From an archaeon (GTDB lineage Archaea > Nanobdellota > Nanobdellia > Pacearchaeales > GW2011-AR1): a stretch of 64,000 bases of DNA. Shown one piece after another: positions 1 through 54,147 of this stretch. Position numbers and translations under genes: made by a program. Each line of letters starts with the position of its first letter. Position 1 is the first letter of the stretch. Location: positions 27,082-91,081 of the forward strand of contig JAZDPV010000018.1 of assembly GCA_043797265.1 (NCBI GenBank), written 5' to 3'. A model generated the notes under the pieces. The model was not told the DNA's origin, ran no database searches, and saw only the letters and a list, made by a program, of their open reading frames with translations.

Positions 1-62
1 CGCCGCCAGGAAAGAAAGTTGGGATGATTAGACCGAGAAGGACGGGGAGGAAGAAGAGATGA
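1..62 (+). CDS. rpl2: 50S ribosomal protein L2, C-terminal fragment (runs off window)
   Basis: Frame from nt 3 reads PPGKKVGMIRPRRTGRKKR*, the conserved uL2 C-terminus; lies upstream of S19. Confidence 0.9.
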   Translation, partial: PPGKKVGMIRPRRTGRKKR

Positions 63-169
63 AATCTTTGATTTCATCAGTTCGCTTCGCTGGAAGTTGG
101 AAGTTCGCTTCGCTGGAAGTGGGGCTTCGCCCGACCTGGATTATATTTGGCTTGGAGGGATTTAGCTAA
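59..169 (+). other. Bridging mini-ORF (36 aa) / hairpin-repeat insert between rpl2 and rps19
   Basis: ATG 59 overlaps L2 TGA; MKSLISSVRFAGSWKFASLEVGLRPTWIIFGLEGFS*; TAA ends 1 nt before S19 ATG; hairpin 58-78; 23-bp-period repeat. Confidence 0.6.
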
Positions 170-170
170 G

Positions 171-563
171 ATGGCGGAATTAATTAAGAGGAGCAAGGAT
201 AGGTTTTATCGAGGGAAGAAAGTCGCGGATTTGAAGGATGTTGATATTCGGGAATTTGCGAAATTGACGAAGGCGAGAGCGAGACGGGCGTTGTTGAGAA
301 ATTATGATATTGTCGAGGCGCTTGTGAAAAGATGGGAGAGATATAATGTGAAGAAGAAACCGATAAGGACGCATAATCGGGAAATTGTAATTGTGCCGAA
401 GATGATTGGATGGACTATTGGAGTTTATAATGGGAAGGAATTTTTGAAAGTTGTTATTAGTGAGGAGATGTTGGGGCATCGGCTGGGAGAGTTTGCGATG
501 ACGAGGAAGGTTGCTAAACATACAAGCATTGGAGCGAAGAAGGCGCCGAAGGAAAATGGATAA
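171..563 (+). CDS. rps19: 30S ribosomal protein S19
   Basis: IRTHNRE, VYNGKEF, MLGHRLGEFA motifs; ATG 171 after GGAGGG. Confidence 0.95.
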   Translation: MAELIKRSKDRFYRGKKVADLKDVDIREFAKLTKARARRALLRNYDIVEALVKRWERYNVKKKPIRTHNREIVIVPKMIGWTIGVYNGKEFLKVVISEEMLGHRLGEFAMTRKVAKHTSIGAKKAPKENG

Positions 564-1068
564 AGAAAAAACTGGCGAGATTGAAAAAGAAGTTGTTTCC
601 GAAGAGAAGAAAGAAGAGAAGAAAGATGTGAAGAAAGAAGTCGTGAGGGGGAAAGTTGTGAAGAAAAATATGGCATTCGCGAGAGGGGCTGGGTTGAATG
701 TTTCGCCGAAGCAATGTATTTGCATTTGCAAAGTTATTCGGGGGAAGAATCCGGATGTTGCTGTTGCGCGGCTGCAGGATGTTATCGACGGGAAAGGGGT
801 TATCCCGATGGCTGGGCTGGAAGTCGGGCATAGAAAAGGCAAGGGGCTGGCGGGCGGGAGATTTCCGAAAAATGCGTGCAATGCTGTTATAAATATTGTG
901 AAGCAGGTTGCGGCGAATGCTGTCGTTGCCGGAATTGAGAATCCGGTGATTGCTGTTGCCAAGGCTGATAGGGCATCGGCTCCGTTCAGGCGTGGAGGGC
1001 GAAGAGCGAAGAGATGTAATCTTTATTTAGAAGTGAGAGATAAAACTAAATTGGCGGGGAAGAAATAG
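556..1068 (+). CDS. rpl22: 50S ribosomal protein L22
   Basis: VSPKQ..ICKVIRGK, GRFPKNA motifs; operon position. Confidence 0.93.
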   Translation: MDKEKTGEIEKEVVSEEKKEEKKDVKKEVVRGKVVKKNMAFARGAGLNVSPKQCICICKVIRGKNPDVAVARLQDVIDGKGVIPMAGLEVGHRKGKGLAGGRFPKNACNAVINIVKQVAANAVVAGIENPVIAVAKADRASAPFRRGGRRAKRCNLYLEVRDKTKLAGKK

Positions 1069-1766
1069 TGGAAGAAAAAGCGTTTGTTGGAGTGCGAAGG
1101 GATGAGTATAATATTCGGGAATTTGTAAAGCGGATGTTTGGGATGGGGAAAGTTTCGCGAGTGAGGATTGAGTATACTCCGGTTGGCGAAAAGGTTGTCG
1201 TGGCGACGCATAGACCTGGTTGGATTATCGGGAAGGGCGGGGAAAAAATTAATGAGTTGACCGAAATTTTGAAGAAGCGGTTTAAGATGGAGAACCCGCA
1301 TGTTGATATCGAGGAGATTATGAAGCCCGAGTTTGATGCTCAACTGGTTGCCGACGACATTGCTTTGACGCTCGAGAGATTTGGGGCGCAAAAATATAAG
1401 GCGTCGAGTTATCGGGCTTTGGATAGAATTAAGAAAGCGGGGGCTTGGGGGGCTGAGTTGAGATTGTCAGGGAAACTGCCGAGCGACAGGGCGCGGAGTT
1501 GGAGATTCGCGTTTGGTTATTTGAAGAAAACTGGCGACGCTGCGAGTGTTGTTGATAGGGCTGAATCTGTTGCTGTTACAAAGCAGGGCGTTGTCGGGAT
1601 TAAGGTTGCGATTTTGGCTCCGGGGGTTAAGGTTTATGACCAGATTGTAATTGACGAGGATTTTATGAATCAGATTAAGAAAAACGCGACATTTGAGGAA
1701 GTTGAGGAGACGGTTAAGAAAAAGAAAAGAAGTGTGAAGAAAAAAATTAAGGAGGGTAGGAAATGA
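1068..1766 (+). CDS. rps3: 30S ribosomal protein S3
   Basis: KH domain RPGWIIGKGG; GAELRLSGKL; GVVGIKV. Confidence 0.95.
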   Translation: MEEKAFVGVRRDEYNIREFVKRMFGMGKVSRVRIEYTPVGEKVVVATHRPGWIIGKGGEKINELTEILKKRFKMENPHVDIEEIMKPEFDAQLVADDIALTLERFGAQKYKASSYRALDRIKKAGAWGAELRLSGKLPSDRARSWRFAFGYLKKTGDAASVVDRAESVAVTKQGVVGIKVAILAPGVKVYDQIVIDEDFMNQIKKNATFEEVEETVKKKKRSVKKKIKEGRK

Positions 1767-1957
1767 TGGCGGAGAAGAAAATGACGGTTAAGGAAATAGA
1801 TAAGAAGATTATGGACTTGAAGATTGAGTTGCTGCGGAATCCGACGAAAAAGGGAAAGATTAAAAGGGAAATTGCGCGGCTTCTTACCATGGGGAACCGA
1901 GAGAACAGAGAATTAAAAATGAAGACTTTAACTAAACTGGAGGATGCGAAGAAGTAA
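1763..1957 (+). CDS. rpl29: 50S ribosomal protein L29
   Basis: KIKREIARLLT motif; follows S3. Confidence 0.85.
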   Translation: MMAEKKMTVKEIDKKIMDLKIELLRNPTKKGKIKREIARLLTMGNRENRELKMKTLTKLEDAKK

Positions 1958-2256
1958 TGGATATTTGTCCGAAGTGTGGACTGCCTTTGGCGGCGTGTGT
2001 CTGCGGCGAGATTGCCAAGACGCAACAACAAATTGTTGTGAAGACCGAAAAAAGGCGTTTCGGAAAAGTTAATACGATTATAACCGGATTTGATAATGGC
2101 GTCGACGTTAAGGATCTCGCGAAGCGGCTCAAAATGAAGCGGGCTTGCGGTGGCACGACGAAAAACAATGTTATCGAATTACAGGGAAATCACAAAGGTC
2201 ACATTAAACCGATTTTGGTTGAAATAGGATTTAGTGAAAATCAGATTGACGATTAG
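1957..2256 (+). CDS. sui1: Translation initiation factor SUI1/aIF1
   Basis: CPKCGLP..CVC, RRFGK, ACGGT, IELQGNH. Confidence 0.93.
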   Translation: MDICPKCGLPLAACVCGEIAKTQQQIVVKTEKRRFGKVNTIITGFDNGVDVKDLAKRLKMKRACGGTTKNNVIELQGNHKGHIKPILVEIGFSENQIDD

Positions 2257-2285
2257 CGCGTTTGCGTGAGGTGATAGAGAATAGA

Positions 2286-2633
2286 ATGGCAGAGAAAAAG
2301 GTAAGGAAGAAAATAGAAATAAAGGTCGAATGTAAAGATAGACTTTGTCCTCGGCATGGGGATAGGAAGTTGAAATTGAGGGGGCGGGTTTTTGAGGGGG
2401 TTGTGATTAGAAAATTTCCGAGGAGAGTCACGATTGAGTTTGAGAGGATGTTGAAGTTGCCGAAGTACGAGAGATATGAGAAAAGGAAAACCAAGATTCA
2501 CGCGAGATTGCCGGATTGCATGAAGGATGAAGTTGCCGTTGGTGATTTGATTTTGATTGCGGAGACGCGACCAATTTCGAAGATGATTCATTTTGTTGTT
2601 TCGAAAGTTGTTCGGAAGGGGGCGGGGGAATGA
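2286..2633 (+). CDS. rps17: 30S ribosomal protein S17
   Basis: CPRHG, LRGRVFEGVV, KYERYEKR, ETRPISK; start may be GTG 2271. Confidence 0.95.
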   Translation: MAEKKVRKKIEIKVECKDRLCPRHGDRKLKLRGRVFEGVVIRKFPRRVTIEFERMLKLPKYERYEKRKTKIHARLPDCMKDEVAVGDLILIAETRPISKMIHFVVSKVVRKGAGE

Positions 2634-2707
2634 GATATGCTTTGATAGAAAAAGGGCTTCGCCAAATTTTATTTAATGTTTTGGAGGTAGAAAATGAAGG
2701 CGATTAG
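2630..2707 (+). other. Bridging mini-ORF (25 aa) after rps17
   Basis: ATGA overlap with S17 stop; MRYALIEKGLRQILFNVLEVENEGD*; stop overlaps ATG 2694; contains GGC-TTC-GCC hairpin. Confidence 0.55.
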
Positions 2708-2900
2708 TGCGCATCATGAGTATAAGGTGGGACTTAATTCTGGTAATTGGTATGGGGTTAGAGAGAGCGGGTTGCCGAGTGATAGAGAAGTTATTGGGGA
2801 TTTAGAGGATGATAATAGTGTTTTTGCCTGTGGTCTTTTTGGCATTGGTACATCTAAAATAAAAAAACCTAAAGCGAGGAATGAAAATGAAGGCGATTAG
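2694..2900 (+). CDS. 68-aa orphan ORF inserted at the rpl14 start, bounded by a 20-bp direct repeat
   Basis: GAAAATGAAGGCGATTAGTG at 2690-2709 and 2883-2902; GGAGGT RBS; begins MKAIS like L14. Confidence 0.6.
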   Translation: MKAISAHHEYKVGLNSGNWYGVRESGLPSDREVIGDLEDDNSVFACGLFGIGTSKIKKPKARNENEGD

Positions 2901-3288
2901 TGGGCGGGTGACGAGGGGGTTGAATATTGGGAGTTTGGTTGATGCGTGTGATAATAGCGGGGCGCGGATTGTAAAAATTGTGGCGGTGAAACACGGGAAG
3001 ACGTCGAAGGGACGGCAGGGTTATGCGAAGGTTGCGGATTGGGTGAAGGTTTCGGTGAGAAAGGGAGACCCGAAGATGAAGGGCGAGGTTTTTGATGCGG
3101 TGGTTGTTCGGCAGAGAAAATCGTGGCGAAGAAACACGGGCGAGAGAGTTTGCTTTTCGGATAATGCGGTTGCGTTGTTCAAGGACGAGAAGGGAAATCC
3201 GAAGGGGACGCAGATTAAGGGTGCGGTCGCGAGGGAAGTTCAGGAAAGATGGAAAGAAGTCGCTAAAATTGCGGGGAGTGTTTATTGA
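2887..3288 (+). CDS. rpl14: 50S ribosomal protein L14
   Basis: DNSGAR, AVVVRQRK, FSDNAVAL, KGTQIKGAVARE. Confidence 0.96.
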   Translation: MKAISGRVTRGLNIGSLVDACDNSGARIVKIVAVKHGKTSKGRQGYAKVADWVKVSVRKGDPKMKGEVFDAVVVRQRKSWRRNTGERVCFSDNAVALFKDEKGNPKGTQIKGAVAREVQERWKEVAKIAGSVY

Positions 3289-3431
3289 TGGGAAAATTAA
3301 AAATTTTCCCATGGGGATACGAGAAACTTTGTTTCTCGAGGGGATATGGCTTCGCCATGGAGATAGACGCTTCGCGTCGGGTGATTGCGCTTCGCGCGGG
3401 TGAATGGAGGAAAGATGAAGTCGAAATTTAA
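3288..3431 (+). other. Bridging mini-ORF (47 aa) with five triloop hairpins between rpl14 and rpl24
   Basis: TGATG overlap; open to TAA 3429-3431 inside L24 5' end; hairpins 3288-3312, 3320-3338, 3346-3358, 3366-3378, 3387-3397. Confidence 0.6.
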
Positions 3432-3936
3432 TAAATCGTGGAATGCGAGTGTGAAGCCAAGGAAACAGAGGAAGTTTTTGGTGAATGCGCCGAATCACAT
3501 TAGGCGAAAGTTGATGGGAGCGACGCTGGATAAGAGATTGAGGGCGAAGCATGGGGTGAGGAGTATTGAAGTTCGGAAGGGCGATGAGGTCAAGGTTATG
3601 AGAGGGAAGTTTGCGAAGAAGCAAGGGAAAGTTGGGGGGGTTGATGTTAAGAATTGCCGGATTCAGATTGATGGATTACAAAGAGAGAAAAAGGGTGGAG
3701 AGAAAGTTATGACGTGGTTCCATCCGTCGAGTGTGAAGATTGTTGTTTTGGATGATAGTGATAAAAGACGGTTTAAACGGAAAGGTTTGGAATCTGGGAA
3801 AGTAAAATTAAGAGAGGGGAAAAATGGCTCACGGATGAACACGGATGAGCACGGATTAAAGAATAAGGAAAATAGAAAAGTTGATAGAATCGTTAAGGGG
3901 AAAATAGATAAAATGGAAAAGGAGATTAAGAAATAA
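3415..3936 (+). CDS. rpl24: 50S ribosomal protein L24 with repeat-derived C-terminal extension
   Basis: [24 protein letters not shown]; extension of roughly 50 aa contains CACGGATGAR repeats. Confidence 0.93.
3830..3859 (+). repeat. 3 x 10-bp tandem repeat CACGGATGAA-like
   Basis: CACGGATGAA/CACGGATGAG/CACGGATTAA preceded by AATGGCT; second copy at 5166-5195. Confidence 0.8.
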
Positions 3937-4595
3937 TGGCGCATATAAAGAAAACTGAAATGCCGACGCTGTGGCCGATTTCGAGAAGAGGGAAGAGAAA
4001 GAGATTTATCGCTGTTCCTGCTCACGCGACTTCGAAGGGAATTAGTTTGTTGTTTTTACTTAGAGATGTTTTGAGAGTTGTTGAGACGAGGAAAGAAGCG
4101 AGATATATGACGCTGAATGGGATGGTCAAAGTTAATAATGTTGTTCGGAAGGATGAGAATTTTCCGGTTCAGGTGTTCGATGTGTTAGGGTTAGAGAAGG
4201 GTGGATTGAATTATAGATTAGAGATTGTTAATGGAAAGTTTAGGTTGAATGAAATATCCGAGAAAGAGGCTGGGGAAAAAATTGTGAAGATTTCCGGGAA
4301 AAAGGTTTTGGGCAAGGATAAGATTCAGATGAATTTGGATGATGGGCAGAATGTTTTGAGCGGGGAGAAATTTTCCGTCGGTGATTCGGTTTTGTTTAAT
4401 ACGAAAGAGAAAAAAGTTGTGAAAATTTTGCCGTTAAAGAAGGGGGCAAAAGTTGAAATTGTTTTGGGAAAGCACGCGGGGGACAAGGGCGAGTTGGTTG
4501 GGTTTGAAGATTTGGCCCGCGGGCGGAATTATGAAATTAAATTGGGGGACAAGATTGTGAGATTGCCTTACAAAACTATCTTGGTGATTGGATGA
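3936..4595 (+). CDS. rps4e: 30S ribosomal protein S4e
   Basis: HIKK..MP..WPISR, LLRDVL, FPVQVFDV, GKHAG. Confidence 0.95.
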   Translation: MAHIKKTEMPTLWPISRRGKRKRFIAVPAHATSKGISLLFLLRDVLRVVETRKEARYMTLNGMVKVNNVVRKDENFPVQVFDVLGLEKGGLNYRLEIVNGKFRLNEISEKEAGEKIVKISGKKVLGKDKIQMNLDDGQNVLSGEKFSVGDSVLFNTKEKKVVKILPLKKGAKVEIVLGKHAGDKGELVGFEDLARGRNYEIKLGDKIVRLPYKTILVIG

Positions 4596-4618
4596 TGGGG
4601 GTAGACGATAGATGGTAG
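4592..4618 (+). other. Bridging mini-ORF (8 aa) made of 7-bp repeats
   Basis: ATGA overlap with S4e stop; MMGVDDRW*; TAG overlaps L5 ATG 4612; TAGACGA-TAGATGG-TAGATGG units. Confidence 0.45.
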
Positions 4619-5154
4619 ATGGTAATAATGTGATGAGAGAAATAAAACTGGAGAAGGTTATTTTGAATATCGGGGGCGTCGAGGATAAATTGAATAGAGG
4701 GGCGATTTTGCTGGAGAAAATTTCGGGGAAGAAAGTGGTGAAGGTCAAGGCGACAAAGAGGATTCCGAGCTGGAATGTTCGGCCGGGACTTGAGGTTGGT
4801 GTCAAGGTTACGTTGAGGGGCGACGACGCGCTGGAGATGGTGAAGAAGTTGTTGCCGGCGATTGATAATATTTTGAAGGAGAAGCAGATTCAGGATAATT
4901 GTTTTTCGTTCGGGATTCATGAGTATATCGAGATTCCGGGAGCTGAGTATATTCGGGAAGTTGGGATTATGGGGTTCGAGGTGACGGTTGTTTTTAGCCG
5001 GGCGGGAAAGAGTGTCGAGCAGAAAAAAATTAAGCGAGGCAAGATGCGAAGGTCGGTTGTGACGAGGAAGGAAATTGAGGATTATGTTGTAGATAAATTT
5101 GGGACGGAAATTTTGCGGAAGGAAAAGAAGTTGGAGGGGGAAGATGAGGAATAG
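4612..5154 (+). CDS. rpl5: 50S ribosomal protein L5
   Basis: MREIKLEKVILNIG, GVKVTLRG, FSFGIHEYIEIPG. Confidence 0.96.
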   Translation: MVDGNNVMREIKLEKVILNIGGVEDKLNRGAILLEKISGKKVVKVKATKRIPSWNVRPGLEVGVKVTLRGDDALEMVKKLLPAIDNILKEKQIQDNCFSFGIHEYIEIPGAEYIREVGIMGFEVTVVFSRAGKSVEQKKIKRGKMRRSVVTRKEIEDYVVDKFGTEILRKEKKLEGEDEE

Positions 5155-5236
5155 AAATAATGGCTCACTAATGAACACGAATGAACACAGATTTAAATTA
5201 AATAGGGAAGTTGGGGGAGGATATGACGTCGAGTGA
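5144..5236 (+). other. Bridging mini-ORF (30 aa) with 10-bp repeats between rpl5 and rps14
   Basis: ATG 5144 after GGAGGGGG; MRNRNNGSLMNTNEHRFKLNREVGGGYDVE*; stop overlaps S14 start. Confidence 0.55.
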
Positions 5237-5453
5237 TTGGAGGAAGATAACGAAGCAGTTGAGGGGGAAGCCGGCGGTGTTGAAAAAGTTTTTGAAACAT
5301 AATAAACCGAAGGCGAGGAAATTTGGCGTCGCTGTTAATAAATGCGAGGTTTGCGGGCGGACCGGGGCTCATATATCAAGTTATAATCTAAATTTGTGCC
5401 GACATTGTTTCAGGGAATTGGCGGTTGAATTGGGGTTTAAGAAATACTCATGA
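5223..5453 (+). CDS. rps14: 30S ribosomal protein S14 (zinc-binding)
   Basis: CEVCGR...LNLCRHCFRE..GFKKY. Confidence 0.95.
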   Translation: MTSSDWRKITKQLRGKPAVLKKFLKHNKPKARKFGVAVNKCEVCGRTGAHISSYNLNLCRHCFRELAVELGFKKYS

Positions 5454-5503
5454 GAAGGAAAATAGATAATAGAAAATTGGAAATAGGAGGAAATTTCAGA
5501 TGA
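5450..5503 (+). other. Bridging mini-ORF (17 aa) with 7-bp repeats between rps14 and rps8
   Basis: ATGA overlaps at both ends; MRRKIDNRKLEIGGNFR*; AAATAGA/TAATAGA/AAATTGG/AAATAGG units. Confidence 0.6.
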
Positions 5504-5871
5504 GTCATGATGTTGTTGCGGACGGGTTGAATCAGATAATGAACGCGAAAGCGGTGGAGAAGGGTGAGGTTGTGATTAGACGGGGTTCGAAAGTTTTGGT
5601 TAAATTATTTAAGATGATGAAAGAGTTGGGGCATATTGATTATAAGATTGAGGACGGGGATATTATTGTCAGGATTTTGAAGTTAAATGAATGCCGGGCG
5701 GTGAAGCCGAGATATTTTGTCGGGGTTGATGGGATTGACAGGTACCTTAGGAGATTTTTGCCGTCGAGAAATTTCGGAACTTTAGTTATTTCTACGAACA
5801 AGGGATTGATAACGCACAAGGAAGCTTTGAAATTAAATATTGGGGGAAGCGTTGTTGCTTATTTTTACTGA
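5500..5871 (+). CDS. rps8: 30S ribosomal protein S8
   Basis: DVVADGL..IMNA, AVKPRY, LVISTNKGL.TH, GGSVVAYFY. Confidence 0.95.
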   Translation: MSHDVVADGLNQIMNAKAVEKGEVVIRRGSKVLVKLFKMMKELGHIDYKIEDGDIIVRILKLNECRAVKPRYFVGVDGIDRYLRRFLPSRNFGTLVISTNKGLITHKEALKLNIGGSVVAYFY

Positions 5872-6452
5872 TGAATAAAGATTTGATGAGAGAGATTGAA
5901 ATTCCGACGGGGGTTGAAGTTTGTGTTAACGGGAATGAGGTTGTTGTGAGAGGGAGCGGAAAGGAGTTGAGAAAAAGTTTTGATAAAGGGAAGGTTGTGA
6001 TTGAAGTCAAGGACGGGAAAATTGTTTTGAGTGTTTCGGGGGCGAGTCGTCGGGAATCGAAGATGATTGGAACGATTTGGGCGCATTTGAAAAATATGAT
6101 TAAGGGAGTTGGCGAAAATTTTGTTTATGAGCTGGAGATTTGCAATATTCATTTTCCGATGAACGTTTCCGTTGTTGAAACAACGGAAAAGGGTACAGGC
6201 ATCAGGAATCAGAATTCAGGCAAGGTTGTGATTAAAAGTTTTTTGGGGAGAGTGAAGGAGAGAGTTGCGCGGATTATGCCGGGGGTGAGTGTTGAAGTGA
6301 AAGGGAATAAGATTGTCGTTAGTTCAGGAGACATTGAGGCGGCAGGACAGACCGCGGCGAATTTAGAGAAAGCGACGAGGCTGGTTGGTCGGGATAGGAG
6401 AGTTTTTCAGGATGGAATTTACATAACTAAAAAACCTTATAGGAATATTTAA
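5871..6452 (+). CDS. rpl6: 50S ribosomal protein L6
   Basis: HFPMNV, FLG, AGQTAANLE, DRRVFQDGIYI. Confidence 0.96.
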   Translation: MNKDLMREIEIPTGVEVCVNGNEVVVRGSGKELRKSFDKGKVVIEVKDGKIVLSVSGASRRESKMIGTIWAHLKNMIKGVGENFVYELEICNIHFPMNVSVVETTEKGTGIRNQNSGKVVIKSFLGRVKERVARIMPGVSVEVKGNKIVVSSGDIEAAGQTAANLEKATRLVGRDRRVFQDGIYITKKPYRNI

Positions 6453-6453
6453 G

Positions 6454-6804
6454 ATGGAAAGAAAGAAGCCGAAATTTTTGAGGAAGGACTGGCACAAGGA
6501 AATTAAACTCGGGAGGACGGTGAAGAAATTGCGGAAGTGGCGGGCGGCGAAGGGGAGACATAACAAGATTAGATTGAGTAGGAGAGGACAGTCGCGGAGG
6601 CCGAAGATTGGATGGTCATTAGGGGGCAGTAGGAAGGGAGTTGGTGGTAAGTATGTTTTGAATTTGAAGGATTTATCGTCGGTAAAAAAAGGTGAGGGAA
6701 TTTTGATTGGGGCCGTTGGGGGGAAGAAGAGAAAGGAAATTGTTGCGAAGGCGAATGATATGGCTGTTAAGATTTTGAATAAATATAAGGTGGTGAAAAA
6801 ATGA
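6454..6804 (+). CDS. rpl32e: 50S ribosomal protein L32e
   Basis: KPKFLR, KWR..KG.HNKIR, VGGKKR. Confidence 0.92.
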   Translation: MERKKPKFLRKDWHKEIKLGRTVKKLRKWRAAKGRHNKIRLSRRGQSRRPKIGWSLGGSRKGVGGKYVLNLKDLSSVKKGEGILIGAVGGKKRKEIVAKANDMAVKILNKYKVVKK

Positions 6805-7205
6805 ATTTGGCTAAGCGAAAAGAGTTGGCGGCGAAAGTTTTTGGGGTCGGGAAAGGCCGGATTATTTTTGTGAAAGATAATTTACCTGAAATTAAAGAGG
6901 CGATTACGCGGATGGATATTATTGATTTGCATAAATCGGGAGCAATTAAAATTAGAGAGATTAGGGGACGGAAGAAAATTGTGAGAAGGCGACATAGAAG
7001 AAGAGTTGGAAAAGTTAAAGGGAAGGTTAGTGATAAGAAGGCGGAGTATGTGATAATCACGAGGAAGTTGCGGAAGTTTGTGAGAGGATTGGTGAGGGCG
7101 GGAAAAATTAAGAGAGAGAGAAGCGGGGAAATTCGGAAAGAGATTCGAGCGCGGAAGTTCAAGAGCAAAAGACATCTTAAAGAAATTTTGGAGGAAGGGG
7201 AATGA
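6801..7205 (+). CDS. rpl19e: 50S ribosomal protein L19e
   Basis: LAAKVFGVGKGRI, IKEAITR.DI, FKSKRHL. Confidence 0.93.
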   Translation: MNLAKRKELAAKVFGVGKGRIIFVKDNLPEIKEAITRMDIIDLHKSGAIKIREIRGRKKIVRRRHRRRVGKVKGKVSDKKAEYVIITRKLRKFVRGLVRAGKIKRERSGEIRKEIRARKFKSKRHLKEILEEGE

Positions 7206-7279
7206 AAGTTTTGGCGGGGCTTTGCCCGAGGTTGTTTGGCGGCGGAAGGAATTTAAATGATGGTTTGAGGGGATTGTGA
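7202..7279 (+). other. Bridging mini-ORF (25 aa) between rpl19e and rpl18
   Basis: ATGA at 5' end, TGATG at 3' end; MKVLAGLCPRLFGGGRNLNDGLRGL*; GGGC-TTT-GCCC hairpin. Confidence 0.6.
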
Positions 7280-7776
7280 TGGCAGGATTAAGGACGATGA
7301 AGCGAAGGAGAAAGGAAGGGCGGACGGATTACAAGTTGAGACTGGGGCTGTTGAAGAGCGGGTTGCCGAGGATTGTGATTAGAAGGACGAACAAATATTT
7401 TATCGTGCAGGCGGTCGAGAGTGTTGAGGCACAGGACGGGGTTGTCGCGACTATTAGTTCGAAGGAGTTGTTGAAATATGATTGGGATGAGAAGAAGGGC
7501 GGGAGTTTGAAATCTATTCCGGCTGGATACCTCACGGGTTTTTTATTCGCCAAGAAACTGAAAAATAAAAACAAGTATATTGTTGATTTAGGGATGGCCC
7601 GGACCGAGAAAGGATGCAGGGTGTTTGCCGTCGTCAAGGGGTTGATTGATGGTGGCGTGAACATTGATGTTGATGAAAAAGTTTTTCCGTCTGGGGAAAG
7701 ATTGGCGGGTGAGCATTTGGAAGACGGGATTAAAGAAATGATTGTAAAAGTTCGGGAGAAATTGAGGAATGGCTAA
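7279..7776 (+). CDS. rpl18: 50S ribosomal protein L18
   Basis: RRRKEGRTDY..RL.LLKS..PR.VIRRTNK; GEHL. Confidence 0.95.
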   Translation: MAGLRTMKRRRKEGRTDYKLRLGLLKSGLPRIVIRRTNKYFIVQAVESVEAQDGVVATISSKELLKYDWDEKKGGSLKSIPAGYLTGFLFAKKLKNKNKYIVDLGMARTEKGCRVFAVVKGLIDGGVNIDVDEKVFPSGERLAGEHLEDGIKEMIVKVREKLRNG

Positions 7777-8605
7777 GAAAAAAGTTGCGGGGGATGCAGA
7801 CGTCAAGGAGCAGTTGGAGGAGATGGTTGATGTGGTGGACGCCAAGGAGAAAGTGGAAGAGGAAAAGGTGTCGAAGGAATTTGACGAGAAGGCGAAGGTC
7901 GAGGAGAGGAGTGAATTTAAACGGGAGACGAAAGAGGAAAGATTTGCGAGAGAAGATTACGAGAAGTTGGAGAGATGGATACCGAGGACTGAGTTGGGGC
8001 GCAAGGTCAGGGCGGGGAAAATCAAGGATATTGACGAGATTTTGAAGGATGGGAAAAAAATTATGGAGTCGGAGATTGTTGATTTGCTGGTTCGTGGTTT
8101 GAAGGTGGACACTTTGTTTATCGGGCAGGCGAAGGGAAAGTTTGGCGGAGGGAAGAGACGGGCGTTCAGGCAGACGCAGAAGAAAACGAAGGAAGGAAAT
8201 GTTTTGACTTTTGGAGTGATGGCTGTTGTTGGCGATGAGCATGGGCACGTTGGGCTTGGTTATGGGCGAGCGTCTGAGACATTGCCGGCGAAGGAAAAAG
8301 CGATTAGGAAAGCGAAATTGAGTATTGTGAAAATTCCGAGGGGGTGTGCGAGTTATAATTGTTCGTGTGATGGGGAACATAGTATCCCCTTGGCCGTCGA
8401 GGGGAAATGCTCTTCAGTGGTTATTAAGTTGATGCCAGCGCCTCAGGGAACGGGGTTGGTTGTTGGGGACGAGATGAAAAAGATTTTGAGGATGGTCGGG
8501 ATAAAGGATGTCTATAGCCAGACCGAGGGAAAAATCAGGACGACGTTTAATGCGGCGAAAGCGTTGATGGTTGCGTTGAATAAATTGAATGAGGTGAGAA
8601 TATGA
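7769..8605 (+). CDS. rps5: 30S ribosomal protein S5
   Basis: WIPRTELGR, VVGDEHGHVGLG, PAPQGTGLV. Confidence 0.96.
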   Translation: MAKKKVAGDADVKEQLEEMVDVVDAKEKVEEEKVSKEFDEKAKVEERSEFKRETKEERFAREDYEKLERWIPRTELGRKVRAGKIKDIDEILKDGKKIMESEIVDLLVRGLKVDTLFIGQAKGKFGGGKRRAFRQTQKKTKEGNVLTFGVMAVVGDEHGHVGLGYGRASETLPAKEKAIRKAKLSIVKIPRGCASYNCSCDGEHSIPLAVEGKCSSVVIKLMPAPQGTGLVVGDEMKKILRMVGIKDVYSQTEGKIRTTFNAAKALMVALNKLNEVRI

Positions 8606-8679
8606 AAATCGTAGATTTTCATGGTGATAATCGTTTTGCGATTGGATGTATGACTTTGTCATGGGTGGTTGTGAGATGA
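8602..8679 (+). other. Bridging mini-ORF (25 aa) with three triloop hairpins between rps5 and rpl30
   Basis: ATGA overlaps at both ends; MKIVDFHGDNRFAIGCMTLSWVVVR*; ATGAAAATC-GTA-GATTTTCAT. Confidence 0.62.
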
Positions 8680-9017
8680 TATTGGTCGTGAGGATTGCGG
8701 GGCAGGCGAGGAAGAAGGCGAAGGATAGTGAGACCTTGAGGCGGTTGAGGTTGGGAAAGAAGTTTAGTTGTATTCTTGTCGACGAGAAAGATGATGTGAG
8801 GATAGGGATGGTGCGAGCGGTGGGATACATGGTTGCTTACGGGAAAGTTGAGGACGATTTTGTGAAAGAGTTGAAGAAGATGCGGAAAGACAAGGATGGG
8901 GTTTATTTTTTGCATCCGCCTCGAGGTGGGTTTAAGAAGAGTTCGAAAGTTGCGACGCCGAAGGGAATCCTTGGGAAAAATGAAGATATCACTAAATTAG
9001 TGGAGAGGATGTTATGA
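8676..9017 (+). CDS. rpl30: 50S ribosomal protein L30
   Basis: VVRIAG, TLRRLRL, LHPPRGGF, LVERML. Confidence 0.93.
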   Translation: MILVVRIAGQARKKAKDSETLRRLRLGKKFSCILVDEKDDVRIGMVRAVGYMVAYGKVEDDFVKELKKMRKDKDGVYFLHPPRGGFKKSSKVATPKGILGKNEDITKLVERML

Positions 9018-9118
9018 AAAAATCGGGGATTTTTTCGGGCGTTAGGTTGCTTCGCTTGTGGGTGTTGGGTCACTTCGCTTGTGGGAACTTGAGTAACATT
9101 GCGGGAGTATTAAGATGA
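9014..9118 (+). other. Bridging mini-ORF (34 aa) between rpl30 and rpl15
   Basis: ATGA overlaps at both ends; hairpin GAAAAAATC-GGG-GATTTTTTC; CTTCGCTTGTGGG twice with 23-bp period. Confidence 0.62.
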
Positions 9119-9564
9119 GAGTTCATAAGAGGAAGAAGTCATCGAGAATTCGTGGGGGAAAAACTTGCGGGTGGGGATTTAGGCAGAAGCACAAGGGGCA
9201 TGGGAATAAAGGTGGGACTGGAATGGCTGGGAGCGGGAAGAGGGCGGACCATAAAAAACAATCTGCGTTGATGTCTGATGAGAAAGGGCAGTATTTTGGG
9301 AAGCAGGGGGCGACGTCGCGAGGAACAAAAAAGAAAAAATATGAAAAAATTAATTTGTGCGATATTCGGGCTAACTTTGATGGGAATAAGATTGATTTGA
9401 GTAAGCATAAGATTCTTGGGAAGGGCGAAGGGTTTAAGGCGGAAATTTTGGCGAAGAGCGCGAGTGTGAGCGCGATTGAAAAGATGGAGAAGGCGGGTGG
9501 TCGAATTCTTATTGTGAATTCGAAGAAATCAGGTGTCAGAAATCAGGTGTCAGAGGAAAATTAA
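9115..9564 (+). CDS. rpl15: 50S ribosomal protein L15
   Basis: RGGKTCGWG...GGTGMAG, KILGKG, AIEKMEKAGG. Confidence 0.95.
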   Translation: MRVHKRKKSSRIRGGKTCGWGFRQKHKGHGNKGGTGMAGSGKRADHKKQSALMSDEKGQYFGKQGATSRGTKKKKYEKINLCDIRANFDGNKIDLSKHKILGKGEGFKAEILAKSASVSAIEKMEKAGGRILIVNSKKSGVRNQVSEEN

Positions 9565-9611
9565 AGTTAATTCTACAAAACTTTATAAAAGAATTTTATG
9601 TTCATTAAATC

Positions 9612-10988
9612 ATGGGCTTAAAATGGTTATTGCATAATTTGCCTGAGGTTCGGGCGCCGACGGAGAAGAAGGTTAGTTTTAATGTTAAATTGAAATGGAC
9701 ACTGGTTATTTTGGTTGGGTTTTTTGTTCTTTGCAATATTCCGTTGTTTGGCATTACAGAGAGTGCGTTGTCGCGGTTTGAGTATTTGGCGATTTTGTTG
9801 GGAACGGATTTTGGTTCGATTATTTCGCTGGGTATTGGGCCTATCGTCATGGCTTCGATTATTTTGCAATTGTTGAATGGAGCGGGGATTTTGAATATTG
9901 ATACGAATACCGACGAGGGCAAGAAGTTTTTTCAGGGGGTGCAGAAATTGCTGGTTTTTGCGTTTGTGATTTTTGAGTCGATGGTTTATGTTTTGATGAG
10001 AGGGATTGCGGCCGAACCGGGTTTTGCGGGGCTTGTTATTTTTCAATTGATTATCGGGGGGCTCTTGATTGTTTTTATGGACGAGGTTGTGCAGAAGTGG
10101 GGCTTTGGTTCGGGGGTTAGTTTGTTTATTGCGGCCGGGATTGGGTGGAGATTGTTTGCTCAGTTGTTCCAGTTTATCGGGCCGACTGGGGCGTTTGAGG
10201 CGACTGGTAAAGTTTTAGCGATTGTTGCCGCGATTATTTCTGGAGGGGCTGGGACGGGGACTGAGGTTTTGAGAAATTTATTTCCGATTATTGCTACTGC
10301 TGTTTTGTTTTTGGCGGTTGTGTTTGCGCAGAGTTTGAAGGTCGAGATTCCGCTGGCGTTTGACAGGATTCGCGGGCATTCGGTAAAGTGGCCGCTGCAA
10401 TTTTTTTATGCGGGGGTTATTCCGGTGATTTTGGTTTCGGCTTTGGTTGCTAATTTGCAGTTGTTTGCGTCGCTGTTGCAGAATTGGCTGGGGCACGCGA
10501 CTTTCCTCGGTGGATTTAGTTCGGGCGGGCAGGCAATTTCGGGTTTGTCTTTTTGGGTTCACTCTACTCCTATTTTGGAGACAATTATCACCGGGAGTTT
10601 TAGATGGATTTATGCCGGGCAGGCGGTGGTTCATATTTTGTTTTATACTTTGTTTTCGATTGTGTTTTCTTTCTTTTGGGTCGGGACTTCAGGGATGGAC
10701 GCGAGGAGTCAGGCGAACAAGATTGTTCATTCTGGGATGAGCATGCCGGGGTTTAGGAAGGACGAGAGAGTTTTGGAATCGATTTTGAAAAGGTATGTGA
10801 CGCCGTTGACAGTGATGGGTGGTGCGGCGATTGGGCTTTTGGCATCGGTGGCGAACTTGCTTGGGGCGTTAGTTGGCGGGACGGCGATTCTTTTGGCGAT
10901 TATGATTTTGTATCAGTTGTATCAGAACATCGCGCAGCAGCATGCGGTCGACATGAATCCGGCGCTCAAGGGTTTCTTTGGTGCTTGA
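9612..10988 (+). CDS. secY: Preprotein translocase SecY
   Basis: LGIGPIVMASIILQLL, KWGFGSGVSLFIAAG, PGFR; about 10 TM segments. Confidence 0.97.
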   Translation: MGLKWLLHNLPEVRAPTEKKVSFNVKLKWTLVILVGFFVLCNIPLFGITESALSRFEYLAILLGTDFGSIISLGIGPIVMASIILQLLNGAGILNIDTNTDEGKKFFQGVQKLLVFAFVIFESMVYVLMRGIAAEPGFAGLVIFQLIIGGLLIVFMDEVVQKWGFGSGVSLFIAAGIGWRLFAQLFQFIGPTGAFEATGKVLAIVAAIISGGAGTGTEVLRNLFPIIATAVLFLAVVFAQSLKVEIPLAFDRIRGHSVKWPLQFFYAGVIPVILVSALVANLQLFASLLQNWLGHATFLGGFSSGGQAISGLSFWVHSTPILETIITGSFRWIYAGQAVVHILFYTLFSIVFSFFWVGTSGMDARSQANKIVHSGMSMPGFRKDERVLESILKRYVTPLTVMGGAAIGLLASVANLLGALVGGTAILLAIMILYQLYQNIAQQHAVDMNPALKGFFGA

Positions 10989-10991
10989 GCG

Positions 10992-11026
10992 CAGTTGGTA
11001 GTGAGTAGTTTTTAGTTGGTAGTGTT
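10992..11026 (+). repeat. 5 x degenerate 7-bp repeat (YAGTNNN)
   Basis: CAGTTGG TAGTGAG TAGTTTT TAGTTGG TAGTGTT. Confidence 0.7.
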
Positions 11027-11108
11027 TAAAGATAAGGCAACTTTGTTGCCGATTTTTTTGACTTGGCTACTTGGATGAATTTATATATTTTGATTTGTTT
11101 TATTTTTT

Positions 11109-11474
11109 ATGTGGGATTATAAAAAACTTGATGTTTGGAAGAGGGCGATTGATTTGATTCCTGTTGTTTATGAGTTGACGAAGAAGTTCCCAAAGGAAGA
11201 GTTGTATGGACTTGTTTCTCAAATGAGGAGAGCGTTTGTTAGTGTTTCTGCGAATATAGCGGAAGGGTGTGGGAGAAGGACTGTTAAAGATTATGTTTCT
11301 TTTTTGTATAATGCTTTGGGGAGCGTGAAAGAAGTTGAGAGCGAGTTGTATGTTTGTGAAAAGTTGGGATATATTTCTGGGAATAAATTGGATGATTTAT
11401 TGAAAGAATTAGATGAGATTGGGAAAATGATTGTTGGTGTTATTAGTTATGTTTCTAGTAAAAATATTGAATAG
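11109..11474 (+). CDS. Four-helix-bundle protein (23S rRNA-IVP / Avd-like family)
   Basis: YKKLDVWKRA, FPKEELYGLVSQMRRA..SVSANIAEG.GR, ALGS..E. Confidence 0.9.
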   Translation: MWDYKKLDVWKRAIDLIPVVYELTKKFPKEELYGLVSQMRRAFVSVSANIAEGCGRRTVKDYVSFLYNALGSVKEVESELYVCEKLGYISGNKLDDLLKELDEIGKMIVGVISYVSSKNIE

Positions 11475-40135: not shown

Positions 40136-40819
40136 TTATATTTTTTTGATTTGTTTTAAATACTTTAATGCAACAAAACTTTTCCAGACTTTTTTCCAAG
40201 AATATTTGAAATCAGTGATTAATCTATATGCCCATTCTACTCCCAATCTTCTAAATATTGTTGGAGATTCTTTCTTCTTTTCTAGCAAGAAATCCATTGC
40301 TGCGCCCACGGTGAAATAGAATGTTGGGTATTTTTTATACAATTGATTTGCCAAAATCTCTTGTTTTGGATTTCCAATGCATATCCAAATATATTTTGGT
40401 TTTATTTTTTTTAATTTGTTTAGGATTGTTTTTTCTTCTTTTTTTGGAAAAATTATTTCTTTTATATATGGCGGATTGTGTGTTTGAGAATTTTTTAGTT
40501 TTGGGAATTTTTTTATTAATATTTTTAGGTCTCTTTCTGATGGTCCAATGAAGAAATGTTTTTGATTATTACTCAACTTCTTTTCAAAGAAATTTTTTGT
40601 GAAGGATGGTCCCCTGATTTGTTTTATCCGTAAAAATAAACTTATCGTTTTCCCGTCTGGAAAGATGAAATTATTTGGGGAGGTTATCGCTTTTTGAAAA
40701 ATTGGTTCATGATTGAATAGGTATATGGAATATAGATTTTGGAAATTTAAGATTCCATTTTTATTAGATCTCATAATTTCTTCTGGTGTTTTTTTTGTAA
40801 AAACTATTTGTTTTTTCAT
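40136..40819 (-). CDS. WecB/TagA/CpsF family glycosyltransferase
   Basis: PDG, GP, IGNPKQE, VGAAMDF, GVEWAYRL. Confidence 0.85.
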   Translation of the reverse strand: MKKQIVFTKKTPEEIMRSNKNGILNFQNLYSIYLFNHEPIFQKAITSPNNFIFPDGKTISLFLRIKQIRGPSFTKNFFEKKLSNNQKHFFIGPSERDLKILIKKFPKLKNSQTHNPPYIKEIIFPKKEEKTILNKLKKIKPKYIWICIGNPKQEILANQLYKKYPTFYFTVGAAMDFLLEKKKESPTIFRRLGVEWAYRLITDFKYSWKKVWKSFVALKYLKQIKKI

Positions 40820-46804: not shown

Positions 46805-48021
46805 TGAATCTTGATTATTTGATTCTTGCATTGAAGAATTTGAAGCATCGGGGGATTCGGTCGTGGCTGACTTTGCTCGGGATTTTTATTGGAGTGACGG
46901 CGGTTGTTTCTTTAATGAGTCTGGGGGCCGGGTTACAGGCGGCGGTTGGGGCTCAGTTTGGTATTAGTTCGACGCAAGCATTAACTATTCAGGCTGGGGG
47001 GTTGAATTCTTTTGGTCCTCCTGGGAGCGGGGCTGTGAATCCATTGACGAGAGAGGATGCGATGGCTATAGAAAAATTAAGCGCTGTAGAATTTGCGACG
47101 CCGAGAAATATTGAGACGATTAAAATAGAATTTAATGACAAGATTGTTATTGGGAATGCTTTAAGTGTTGACGATAATAGGGAGCAAGAAATGTATGAGA
47201 CTATGGGTTTAGAAGCGGCGCAGGGGAGAATGCTTCAATCGGGAGATTTGGGGAAAGTGATTATTGGAAGCAGCCTCGCTGATGGTGGGAAAAATGGATT
47301 TGATGAAGATATTGTCCCGGGTAAAACTATTTTAGTTCAGGATGAAAAATTTAAGGTGATAGGTATTCTTAAAAAAATGGGGAGTTTTACTATTGATGGA
47401 ATTGTTTTCATGTATGATGATGATTTGAATGGCTTGATGAATTATGGCGACGAGGTTGATATTATTGGCGTGAAGGTGAAAGATAAAGATTTGATGGACA
47501 AGGCGGTTGAAGAAATTAGTAAGTTGTTGAGGGAGAGGCGTGATGTTAAAGTTGGCGAGGAGGATTTTGAAATATCCACACCGGAATCGATGTTGGAAAC
47601 TGTGAATAGTATTCTTGGCGGGGTTCAAGCTTTTATTATTATTATAGCGTCGATTTCGATTTTGGTCGGGGTGATCGGAATTGTTAATACGATGACGACT
47701 TCGGTTTTGGAGAGGCGGAAAGAAATTGGAATTATGAAAGCGATTGGCGCAAGAAATAGCCAGGTGTTTATGCAATTTTTTTTTGAGTCGGGAATGCTTG
47801 GGTTAATAGGAGGATTGGTTGGTGTTGTTTTGGGGACGTTGGTCGGAGTCGTTGGGGTTATGAGTATTAATAGTTTTCTTGGAGCGGAACTTTCTCCGAT
47901 GATTGATTTTGTATTGATAGGCGGAGCGTTGGCTGGAAGTTTTGTGATTGGTGCCGTTGCTGGAATTGTGCCCGCGATGAATGCTGCTAAACAAAATCCG
48001 GTGGAGGCGCTGAGGGGATGA
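46804..48021 (+). CDS. MacB/FtsX-like ABC permease
   Basis: RSWLTLLGIFIG, SVLERRKEIGIMKAIGA, PVEALR. Confidence 0.93.
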   Translation: MNLDYLILALKNLKHRGIRSWLTLLGIFIGVTAVVSLMSLGAGLQAAVGAQFGISSTQALTIQAGGLNSFGPPGSGAVNPLTREDAMAIEKLSAVEFATPRNIETIKIEFNDKIVIGNALSVDDNREQEMYETMGLEAAQGRMLQSGDLGKVIIGSSLADGGKNGFDEDIVPGKTILVQDEKFKVIGILKKMGSFTIDGIVFMYDDDLNGLMNYGDEVDIIGVKVKDKDLMDKAVEEISKLLRERRDVKVGEEDFEISTPESMLETVNSILGGVQAFIIIIASISILVGVIGIVNTMTTSVLERRKEIGIMKAIGARNSQVFMQFFFESGMLGLIGGLVGVVLGTLVGVVGVMSINSFLGAELSPMIDFVLIGGALAGSFVIGAVAGIVPAMNAAKQNPVEALRG

Positions 48022-48131
48022 AATCTTTGATTTTATCCTCAAGGGTATTGGGGCGCTTTGCTTGTTGGTATTGGGGCGCTTTGCTTGTTGGTGATTTAAG
48101 TAACTTGAGGATACTGAAAAATGGTGATTAG
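48018..48131 (+). other. Bridging mini-ORF (37 aa) between the two permeases
   Basis: ATGA overlap; MKSLILSSRVLGRFACWYWGALLVGDLSNLRILKNGD*; stop overlaps ATG 48121; 2 x 23-bp tandem 48044-48089. Confidence 0.6.
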
Positions 48132-51234: not shown

Positions 51235-51360
51235 AAAGTAACATTAGAAATGTTTCATGTAGTCGCTTGCCCAGCCGTGGAGGTGGAAAATGACTAAAGT
51301 AACATTAGAAATGTTTCATGTAGTCGTTTGTCCAATTGCGGAGGTGGAAAATGACTAAAG
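51235..51360 (+). repeat. 61-bp tandem duplication carrying two 22-aa bridging mini-ORFs (51229-51297, 51290-51358)
   Basis: AAAGTAACATTAGAAATGTTTCATGTAGTCG...GGAGGTGGAAAATGACT twice. Confidence 0.85.
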
Positions 51361-52927: not shown

Positions 52928-53300
52928 GGAGAATGTTGGGATATTGAGTATTTATGCGAGTTTTAATAATACAATTGCGACGATGACAGATTTGGCGGGG
53001 AACACGATTGGGCGGGTTTCCGGCGGACAGATTACGAAGCATGATAGAATGAGGGCAAACCCGACGATTGCGATGTTTATTGCGAAAAGGATACAGGATG
53101 TTTGTCGAGATTATAAGATTAAGGATTTGTATGTGAGGATGAAGGGGCAGACGGGAGCGAGCGGGATTGGGCCGGGGGCGCATGCGATTGTTAAGACATT
53201 AACAAAAGAAGGATTTAGGATTTTGAGTATTACTGAGACGACTGCTGTTCCTCGTGGCGGGCCGAAGAAGAAGGGCGGGAGAAGAGGGAGGCGAGTTTAA
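52914..53300 (+). CDS. rps11: 30S ribosomal protein S11
   Basis: IYASFNNT..TDL.G, GPGA, GGRRGRRV. Confidence 0.96.
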   Translation: MAKSEENVGILSIYASFNNTIATMTDLAGNTIGRVSGGQITKHDRMRANPTIAMFIAKRIQDVCRDYKIKDLYVRMKGQTGASGIGPGAHAIVKTLTKEGFRILSITETTAVPRGGPKKKGGRRGRRV

Positions 53301-53410
53301 TGAAATCAAAGATTTTATTATGGTGGTCTGCATTTGGTCTTCGGTGGCTGGAGATAAATAACAAGTATAAATTTATAAATTGGGAAATGGATGGAACGAT
53401 ATGGAAATGA
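53300..53410 (+). other. Bridging mini-ORF (36 aa) between rps11 and rpoD
   Basis: TAATG overlap; MKSKILLWWSAFGLRWLEINNKYKFINWEMDGTIWK*; TGA overlaps ATG 53407; hairpin AATGAAATC-AAA-GATTTTATT. Confidence 0.6.
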
Positions 53411-54108: not shown

Positions 54109-54147
54109 GTGTTGGATATTTTATCTAATATTTTGTCCGCGGGTAGT

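Follow-up and report, generated by a model that had tools for sequence, protein, structure and literature searches.

How can short repeated sequences come to lie precisely on the stop/start junctions of a ribosomal-protein operon, and what allows them to stay there? The question is raised by a stretch of 64,000 nucleotides (nt) of an archaeal contig (JAZDPV010000018.1, positions 27,082 to 91,081; G000:C18:27082-91081), in the following called the window, which belongs to an assembly of 625 kb in 18 contigs. This source genome is designated G000 within a set of 49 genomes of its genus, all labelled Gxxx. Pfam matches mark window positions 1-11000 as an archaeal-type ribosomal-protein operon with the order L2, S19, L22, S3, L29, SUI1, S17, a 68-codon open reading frame (ORF), L14, L24, S4e, L5, S14, S8, L6, L32e, L19e, L18, S5, L30, L15 and SecY, in which L2 ends at position 62. 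A preliminary description of this DNA had drawn attention to a recurring insert headed by an ATG-containing hairpin at six positions, and all six hairpins were recovered there; they fall on the junctions L2|S19 (58), L14|L24 (3288), S5|L30 (8602) and L30|L15 (9016), between two FtsX-like permease genes (48016), and at S11|RpoD (53299). Our judgement is evenly balanced on the reading that these inserts form a family resembling repetitive extragenic palindromic (REP) sequences and miniature inverted-repeat transposable elements (MITEs), which sits on stop/start junctions of co-directional operons (those of ribosomal proteins, RNA polymerase, the exosome and an ABC permease) and is tolerated since ribosomes are relayed across it.

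Hairpin inserts on stop codons and the frames that bridge them

The insert at L2|S19 opens with the hairpin GATGAAATC-TTT-GATTTCATC (58..78, plus strand, as for all insert features below), whose 5' arm contains the L2 stop codon TGA (60-62) together with an overlapping ATG (59-61). From this ATG a mini-ORF of 36 codons (MKSLISS..., 59..169) opens on the L2 stop and closes with TAA (167-169), 1 nt ahead of the S19 ATG (171). The hairpin is followed by two 23-nt units AGTTCGCTTCGCTGGAAGT(T/G)GG (79..123), a unit that is also scattered through the genome and the genus, and by a mini-hairpin GGGC-TTC-GCCC (122..132), which forms the latter half of a module, AGTTCGCTTCGCTG...GGGCTTCGCCCG, recurrent in several congeners. 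The 3' module (133..170) consists of GACCTGG..., a Shine-Dalgarno (SD)-like GGAGGG (154-159) and TAAG ahead of the S19 start, and aligns with the GRCTTGG(G/C)...GGAGG...ATG tails found elsewhere. The L14|L24 insert (3288..3414) has its ATG hairpin at 3288-3312, then four successive perfect C-TTY-G hairpins (3320-3338, 3346-3358, 3366-3378 and 3387-3397), which share the loop, have unrelated stems and are separated by GGRGATA spacers, and a terminal GGAGG before the L24 ATG (3415). At S5|L30 (8602..8675) the ATG hairpin (8602-8622) is accompanied by two more small hairpins, one of them at 8650-8662, and the TGA of the mini-ORF overlaps the L30 ATG (8676), while at L30|L15 (9014..9118) a hairpin (9015-9037) and 23-nt units (9037-9082) lie in a 34-codon mini-ORF whose TGA overlaps the L15 ATG (9115).

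Outside the ribosomal-protein operon, the insert between the two FtsX-like permease genes (48016..48131) carries the hairpin GGATGAAATC-TTT-GATTTTATCC (48016-48038) and identical 23-nt units (48044-48089, the array reaching 48092), and its mini-ORF (48018-48131) closes 10 nt inside the next gene (ATG 48121). The S11|RpoD insert (53299..53410) combines the hairpin AATGAAATC-AAA-GATTTTATT (53299-53319) with a GGTCTTCGG... hairpin, and its mini-ORF (53300-53410) closes 9 nt inside RpoD (ATG 53401), with an ancestral TATA-like spacer kept downstream. As had been described, the 5' arm of the stem carries both the upstream stop and the new ATG at all six sites, in the form of ATGA overlaps at 59-62, 8602-8605, 9014-9017 and 48018-48021, TGATG at 3286-3290 and TAATG at 53298-53302. 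The 23-bp period also attributed to the repeats holds for three inserts, namely 79/102 (22 nt, 95% identity), 9037/9060 (23 nt, 83%) and 48044/48067 (23 nt, 100%; period 23 and 2.1 copies at 48044-48092 by Tandem Repeats Finder), but it is not general, since the units measure 7, 8, 17, 19, 20, 23 or 33 nt across copies. By eye, TATA-like strings lie 20-35 nt ahead of the next ATG in the inserts at 58, 48016 and 53299, and not in those at 3288, 8602 and 9016.

Bridging was assessed across the genome with gene starts from a home-made heuristic gene caller, which models genes of the G-rich strand alone and accounts for 73% of the genome; its first codon model gave 886 genes on this strand versus 1 on the other, genes of the C-rich strand lying outside the model, and "intergenic" in the counts of hairpins and units below means outside G-strand genes. 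Among 388 co-directional spacers of 31-220 nt in G000, 43 contain an ATG that overlaps or directly adjoins the stop of the upstream gene, and the frame opened by this ATG closes between -6 and +16 nt from the next predicted start in 16 of the 43, as compared with 2 of 86 control frames, which are the other two frames of the same spacers (Fisher p = 2e-7). S5|L30 also bridges when the start of L30 is placed by homology at 8676. The mini-ORFs range from 24 to 54 codons and use stop/start overlaps at both ends, with ATGA, TAATG or TGATG shared with the upstream gene. As an independent check in the relatives, 21 hits of a covariance model of the ATG hairpin, all outside its training set, were examined; at 13 of them a frame of 72 codons or more comes from upstream and terminates on the ATG, and 11 of these 13 bridge to a downstream frame of at least 101 codons. 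The remaining 8 hits are reverse-strand palindrome readings, non-ATG matches, or one G000 hit (contig C16) with an upstream frame of 27 codons. The genes flanking the copies in relatives, L3|L4, L6|L32e, S11, Rrp4|Rrp41, RpoH|RpoB, VWA/DUF58 pairs and NTP_transf_2|OapB, encode subunits of complexes.

Bridging frames also occur where the 5' ATG hairpin is missing. In the window, ATGA-started bridging mini-ORFs of this kind fill the spacer between S17 and the 68-codon gene (2630..2707), which has one GGGCTTCGCC motif, and the S14|S8 spacer (5450..5503), where the mini-ORF closes in ATGA on the S8 start and which lacks any hairpin. The L19e|L18 spacer (7202..7279) likewise has an ATGA-started bridging mini-ORF, together with a GGGC-TTT-GCCC hairpin, and this junction is empty in G023. 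In G001 (locus L108) the FtsX|FtsX spacer is 70 nt long and hairpin-less, and a 24-codon frame runs through it, opening in ATGA at the upstream stop and closing in ATGA at the start of the following gene. In four other congeners, G010, G012, G015 and G011 (loci L003, L006, L020 and L023), unrelated small genes of 290-590 nt occupy precisely the interval from the stop of L30 to the start of L15, each starting and ending on a stop/start overlap, ATGA to ATGA; one of them appears by eye to be metallo-beta-lactamase-fold-like from an HxHxDH string. Given these hairpin-less bridges and ATGA-to-ATGA small genes, bridging looks like a general rule of the genus, of which the hairpin family is one type of occupant.

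Anatomy and distribution of the insert family

Alignment of 26 copies from G000 and eight relatives revealed an element of about 70-160 nt in three parts. The shared 5' part is a hairpin opening with ATG(A), of the form ATGAAATC-NNN-GATTTCAT and variants, with stems of 7-12 bp. The middle is built on GCTTYGC cores or C-TTY-G triloop hairpins and consists of tandem units of 7-33 nt, for example AGT(T/C)CGCTTCGCTGGAAGT, GGTGTTC or GGTGGTCG, or of C-TTY-G hairpins with differing stems split by GGRGATA; these arrays lengthen and shorten by slippage, and the insert body is poor in A (14.7% versus 23.8% in all spacers). The shared 3' module reads GRCTTGG(G/C)..., then an SD-like GGAGG, and its closing stop codon overlaps the ATG of the downstream gene or lies directly beside it. 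This module was also considered as a duplicate of the end of the upstream gene, but the similarity is only suggestive and the same module precedes unrelated genes in other genomes, so that it is taken as part of the element. The idea that the 5' hairpin is a foldback copy of the native start was rejected as well: it fits S5|L30 and L30|L15, where relatives have the native starts ATGAAAAT.. and ATGAAAAC.., but fails at L2|S19, where the native sequence is ATGGCAGA, and at L14|L24, where native ATGAAATCGG stands against ATGGGAAAATT of the insert.

The core motif is modestly enriched in the window (16 GCTTYGC matches versus 9.65 +/- 2.65 in shuffles, with 2 of 100 shuffles reaching 16) and strongly so genome-wide, where GCTTCGC has 112 occurrences on the G-rich strand, for which base composition predicts 11.3, and 35 on the opposite one. 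The longer string CGCTTYGCTG is found 23 times on the G-rich strand (21 of them intergenic, at 14 loci) versus once on the opposite strand. C-TTC-G (49) and C-TTT-G (36) are the two commonest triloop classes of the 719 hairpins whose stems reach 5 bp or more, and the genome contains 37 clusters of 2-5 hairpins each. The position of the 5' hairpin is exact: a hairpin (stem of at least 7 bp) starting at the very A of the ATG accompanies 8 of the 60 stop-overlapping ATGs that have a spacer of more than 30 nt, compared with 3 of 594 ordinary called gene starts and 64 of 13,654 ATG triplets overall. Between G000 and its G023 orthologue at L30|L15 the stem shows a compensatory pairing change from ATC/GAT to ATT/AAT, and G041 has a variant in which AAATC/GATTT is replaced by AAGTC/GACTT; both favour maintenance of the 5' hairpin. 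In the alignment 89% of the cells are paired and 0 of 500 shuffles are as high, a figure of little weight because the rows were picked as hairpins and the registers shift.

Joint absence of further copies and of empty orthologous junctions had been named beforehand as the outcome that would count against a mobile family, yet further copies and empty junctions were both found. Homology and dispersal, as proposed for a REP/MITE-like family, are borne out by a 90%-identical 59-nt stretch in the same architecture on contig C12 of G000, by 10 BLAST matches within G000 and by matches in 12 of the 48 other congeners. With the insert at 58 as BLAST query 13 of the 49 genus genomes are positive, and the covariance model built from the copies, whose E-values are weak and rough (0.0016-0.05), gave 45 matches in 12 of the 49; the two sets have 10 genomes in common. 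Outside the genus, 5 weak matches appeared in 4 of 40 further genomes of the order, with about 2 expected by chance. In relatives, copies occupy other junctions, namely L23|L2, L6|L32e, L3|L4, Rrp4|Rrp41 and RpoH|RpoB; the L23|L2 copy of G061 matches the L2|S19 copy of G000 with 86% identity across 58 nt, and L6|L32e is filled in G050 and G041 and empty in G000. The G050/G041 element, which precedes a gene beginning MVEEKKK, was considered as a possible counterpart of window position 51887, but this has no BLAST support, and Pfam identifies the junction as L6|L32e.

The orthologous junctions are mostly empty in congeners (ATGA, TAATG or TAAGATG). L30|L15 measures at most 14 nt in 17 of 22 congeners and is filled by the hairpin insert only in G000 and G023, besides the four unrelated small genes described above. 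L2|S19 is empty in 13 of 14 loci, plus G061 as ATGA; it is filled in G000 and G024, which share the 5' hairpin and differ in the body, and G012 has a 344-nt insertion. L14|L24 is empty in 13 of 16 loci, with larger insertions in G012, G024 and G020, and S5|L30 is empty in 14 of 18 and filled in G023, G024, G022 and G020. The FtsX|FtsX junction is empty in G005 and G061, carries different fillings in G024, G001 and G050, and holds a whole gene in G023. The closest relative is G023 (L15 83% identical, FtsX 92%); it is without the L2|S19 and L14|L24 inserts and has one of its own at S4e|L5. C-TTY-G hairpins number 11 in the ribosomal-protein operon of G000, 5 in that of G023 and 0-1 in each of 18 other relatives. 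The inserts are thus gains or losses rather than fixed features, and the family is lineage-restricted, confined to part of one DPANN-type archaeal genus. Targeting of ATGA junctions, as was first suggested, is not borne out, since two ancestral sites are not ATGA overlaps, the L2|S19 site being TAAGATG in 8 of 8 relatives among those listed, and the S11|RpoD site a 44-nt promoter spacer. The feature common to the sites is landing on the upstream stop codon, which survivorship can explain as well as targeting.

In two relatives, at loci L075 (G050) and L052 (G061), a short ORF of 101 and 92 codons, respectively, which belongs to no Pfam family, lies between the copy and the next conserved gene. 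A hairpin-repeat element of this kind may act as the leader of a small gene cassette.

A proposed relay by reinitiation and its alternatives

In the relay reading, a ribosome that ends the upstream gene would already have melted the hairpin, would reinitiate at the overlapping AUG and translate the mini-ORF of 24-54 codons through the hairpins, and would then terminate on the start of the next gene and reinitiate there. The insert would thereby restore the termination-reinitiation coupling that a 100-nt spacer would otherwise abolish, so that inserts would be tolerated even within the ribosomal-protein operon. The relay is proposed because a spacing of about 20 nt is reported to nearly abolish such coupling in Haloferax volcanii and Escherichia coli (PMC10666635), because a hairpin over a start is described as openable by an upstream ribosome in RNA-unfolding coupling (PMC12548453), and because the mini-ORFs bridge. 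The earlier suggestion that in mRNA the hairpin would conceal the start until melted by a terminating ribosome agrees with this RNA-unfolding model. The ends of the mini-ORFs show the stop/start overlap or few-nt distance of coupled gene pairs. Termination-reinitiation at ATGA and TGATG overlaps (PMC6728339; PMC10666635) is thus a close parallel, and many of the empty ancestral junctions have these overlaps too; the cases given there couple two real genes directly, whereas here the relay would pass through a mini-ORF whose peptide is probably meaningless. Similarly, in RNA-unfolding coupling (phage MS2 coat-lysis, phage f1 genes VII/IX and E. coli rpmI-rplT) the hidden start is that of a functional gene, while here it would be that of a relay frame within a repeated insert.

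Several observations weigh against this account. RNA folds of the whole inserts clearly beat shuffles in only 3 of 6 (z = -0.99, -2.51, -2.95, -0.82, -3.28 and -0.80, the stretch 56-172 being the -0.99 case), while the perfect Watson-Crick stems stand out more under DNA parameters, with z of -2.2 to -7.2 in 5 of 6 on either strand. More than half of the spacers with an ATG on the stop (27 of 43) have no bridging frame, and the bridging test rests on starts from the home-made gene caller. The L30|L15 mini-ORFs of G000 and G023 differ by 15 substitutions, distributed 2, 5 and 8 over codon positions 1, 2 and 3, which gives no clear coding signal. Structure just past the stop lowered coupling in one library screen reported in PMC12548453. 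Most downstream genes have an SD-like motif of their own and RpoD keeps a promoter-like spacer, so that independent initiation is possible and coupling may be unneeded. Nearly all modelled genes lie on the G-rich strand and there are no arrays near opposite-strand genes, so that orientation cannot separate a role in RNA from one in DNA. Finally, the complement of GCTTCGC, GCGAAGC, fits the GCGNAGC class described as very stable mini-hairpin DNA (PMC13037366).

An alternative that we regard as less probable, though still a serious rival, is that palindromes and units are by-products at the DNA level of replication slippage, template switching or a hairpin-recognising enzyme, in a genome that handles its two strands very unequally, and that the bridging frame is only a survivorship filter. 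It overlaps with the relay reading on origin and differs on function. The extreme GC skew of all 18 contigs of G000 (0.29-0.53 in absolute value) agrees with it, as do the 23:1 strand ratio of CGCTTYGCTG, the stems that are more exceptional by DNA than by RNA rules, the mini-hairpin just mentioned, and the identity of tandem copies (2.1 copies of 23 nt at 100%, and three of 17 nt in G023), which points to recent slippage; moreover, of the 139 C-TTY-G hairpins whose stems reach 4 bp or more, 57 fall within called genes. It accounts less well for a 5' hairpin set to the nucleotide on stop/start codons at the frequencies given above, for conserved 5' and 3' modules that move jointly between unrelated junctions, and for the compensatory change in the orthologous hairpin, and a mutational process alone would not be expected to place an SD ahead of a stop/start overlap at the 3' end.

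It is unlikely, in our estimate, that the arrays are mRNA elements resembling REPs and bacterial interspersed mosaic elements (BIMEs), which would tune neighbouring cistrons as exonuclease barriers, processing sites or ribosome stallers near the stop. They are intercistronic and oriented with transcription, relatives encode the exosome subunits Rrp4 and Rrp41, and the hairpin starts on the stop, much as E. coli REPs at most 15 nt from a stop are reported to stall ribosomes and lower translation (PMC12306157); yet such a role leaves the frame from the upstream stop to the next start unexplained, several copies with 2-bp GCTTCGC cores and no extended stem would be weak in RNA, and presence at essential operons is erratic among close relatives. 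Least probable by far is that the mini-ORFs are real small-protein genes or the inserts conserved autoregulatory leaders of ribosomal-protein genes. Open frames of 24-54 codons with purine-rich sequence ahead, and several copies within ribosomal-protein operons, would suit it, but the absence of the insert from the same junction in most congeners counts strongly against it, the peptide sequences are dictated by the repeats and vary freely from copy to copy, operons for permease, RNA polymerase, exosome and VWA genes harbour the same element too, and no Rfam match was obtained even at E up to 1. The Rfam search covered the inserts at the gathering threshold and window positions 1-9700 at E up to 1.

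Among known repeats, REP/BIME sequences of Enterobacteria and Pseudomonas, including the REPINs (paired REPs) moved by REP-associated tyrosine transposases (RAYTs) of the Y1 type, are the nearest in kind: like the present family they are short G+C-rich palindromes, multi-copy, extragenic, arrayed in operons near stops and variable between relatives, and short palindromic units repeated in extragenic DNA are what is found here. REPINs and BIMEs contain inverted pairs, whereas here the units are all direct, and the present family differs further in its fixed 5' and 3' modules, its bridging frame and its archaeal hosts. As a possible mobiliser, the only Y1_Tnp gene of G000 was considered, an IS200-like Y1 transposase gene (59878-60216, plus strand) with an open frame of 112 codons that covers Pfam positions 12-121 of 121 and may be short at the N-terminus. 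Its flanking hairpins (~59831-59856 and 60217-60243) are unique and unlike the arrays, and Y1_Tnp, present in 12 of the 49 genus genomes, is carried by 3 of the 13 genomes with the family and by 9 of the 36 without it (genomes 69-100% complete); with neither shared hairpins nor co-occurrence, it was rejected. A TnpB (PF07282) match is lacking in the G000 genome. The Y1_Tnp gene itself lies in an AT-rich island beside a tyrosine recombinase (57772-58596, minus strand) and an HNH-like ORF.

MITEs, Correia elements, enterobacterial repetitive intergenic consensus (ERIC) sequences and elements derived from IS200/IS605 insertion sequences share with the family that they are small, non-coding, hairpin-forming, dispersed and insertion-polymorphic with empty sites. 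In the present inserts, by contrast, the hairpin is at one end only, and no clear target-site duplication was seen. No terminal inverted repeats were seen by inspection across the 26 aligned copies, the 5' and 3' ends not being inverted copies of each other. The flanks read ATGA...ATGA or ATG...ATG, which are also functional stop/start codons, and comparison of L2|S19 with the empty site leaves at most 1 nt ambiguous. No autonomous parent with the same ends was found, and the small ORFs next to the G050 and G061 copies belong to no Pfam family. IS200/IS605 palindrome elements have subterminal hairpins at both ends and insert 3' of a fixed tetranucleotide without duplicating it, whereas here the conserved hairpin is at the 5' end only and the bases 5' of TGAAA vary (GA, TA, AA, CA) apart from the final A. 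The Rickettsia palindromic elements are inserted into genes without breaking the frame and end up translated as a segment of the protein. Like the present inserts, they are selfish-looking palindromic insertions in a reduced genome that survive by staying translatable; here, however, the inserts lie between genes, with a start and stop of their own overlapped with the neighbours, and a sequence relation is not implied.

Neighbouring repeats and implications of a possible relay

The window holds further repeats and genes of note. At 54147-54400 a tRNA-Leu(AAG) gene is followed by an insert of ~140 nt with 2.7 perfect copies of a 33-nt unit and CCCC-TTC-GGGG hairpins, past which the last ~33 nt of the tRNA 3' end and flank are repeated (TTTCCTCATATGGACGGAGAATTCGA twice), an arrangement that resembles an insertion flanked by a long duplication of its target. 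A unit of 61 nt, present 2.1 times at 51235-51360, carries the hairpin motif AAAGTAACAT-NNNN-ATGTTTCATG, which is found again next to duplicated tRNA 5' ends of contigs C2 and C16 (oriented positions 46250-46350, 47130-47165 and 40480-40510), and these elements are a second, different insert family. Smaller repeats are a decamer CACGGATGAA (x 2.7, 3830-3856) in the L24 gene region and CACGAATGAA (x 2.3, 5166-5188) in the L5|S14 spacer, and similar ACACGGACCA units are found in a spacer of contig C2. The gene directly after SecY (11109-11474) belongs to PF05635, the "23S rRNA intervening sequence protein" family, and is also bAvd-like; ahead of it a GGCAAC-TTT-GTTGCC hairpin with a T-run is placed at ~11033-11055. 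The L15|SecY spacer (9564-9612) contains a conserved AAAACTTTATAAA motif ~25-35 nt ahead of the SecY ATG in several congeners, which looks like a putative archaeal promoter, with a transcription factor B recognition element (BRE) and TATA box, within the operon. GC skew per 2-kb bin of the window ranges from 0.06 to 0.57; between 26 and 44 kb it is still positive but lower (0.06-0.25), minus-strand genes are many and G+C falls to 27-38%.

The literature searched yielded no description of such repeat families in DPANN-type archaea, nor of a meaningless mini-ORF acting as a relay across an inserted spacer, so that the bridging-frame design appears undescribed as far as these searches reach. Tentatively, and as a possibility we hold less strongly than the relay itself, the inserts could stand for a class of mobile "relay cassettes" that ride on translational coupling. 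Such a cassette would bring a stop for the upstream gene, a start gated by the hairpin, a body of repeats poor in stops, and for the downstream gene an SD with a stop/start overlap; it could invade the ribosomal-protein, RNA polymerase and exosome operons of a minimal genome without uncoupling them, and its expanding repeats might seed fast-evolving small "bridging" genes like those at these junctions in relatives. Tight stop/start overlaps are thought to fix the translation ratios of the subunits of complexes, and the inserts of 70-160 nt, although located in the most conserved operons of a very small genome, still keep a frame by which ribosomes could be passed on. The family also represents a dated, lineage-specific burst of repeats in DPANN-type archaea. 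If the relay works, it would show how selfish or error-born DNA enters coupled operons, provide a natural design for long-distance translational coupling, and open a route to new small genes between old ones.

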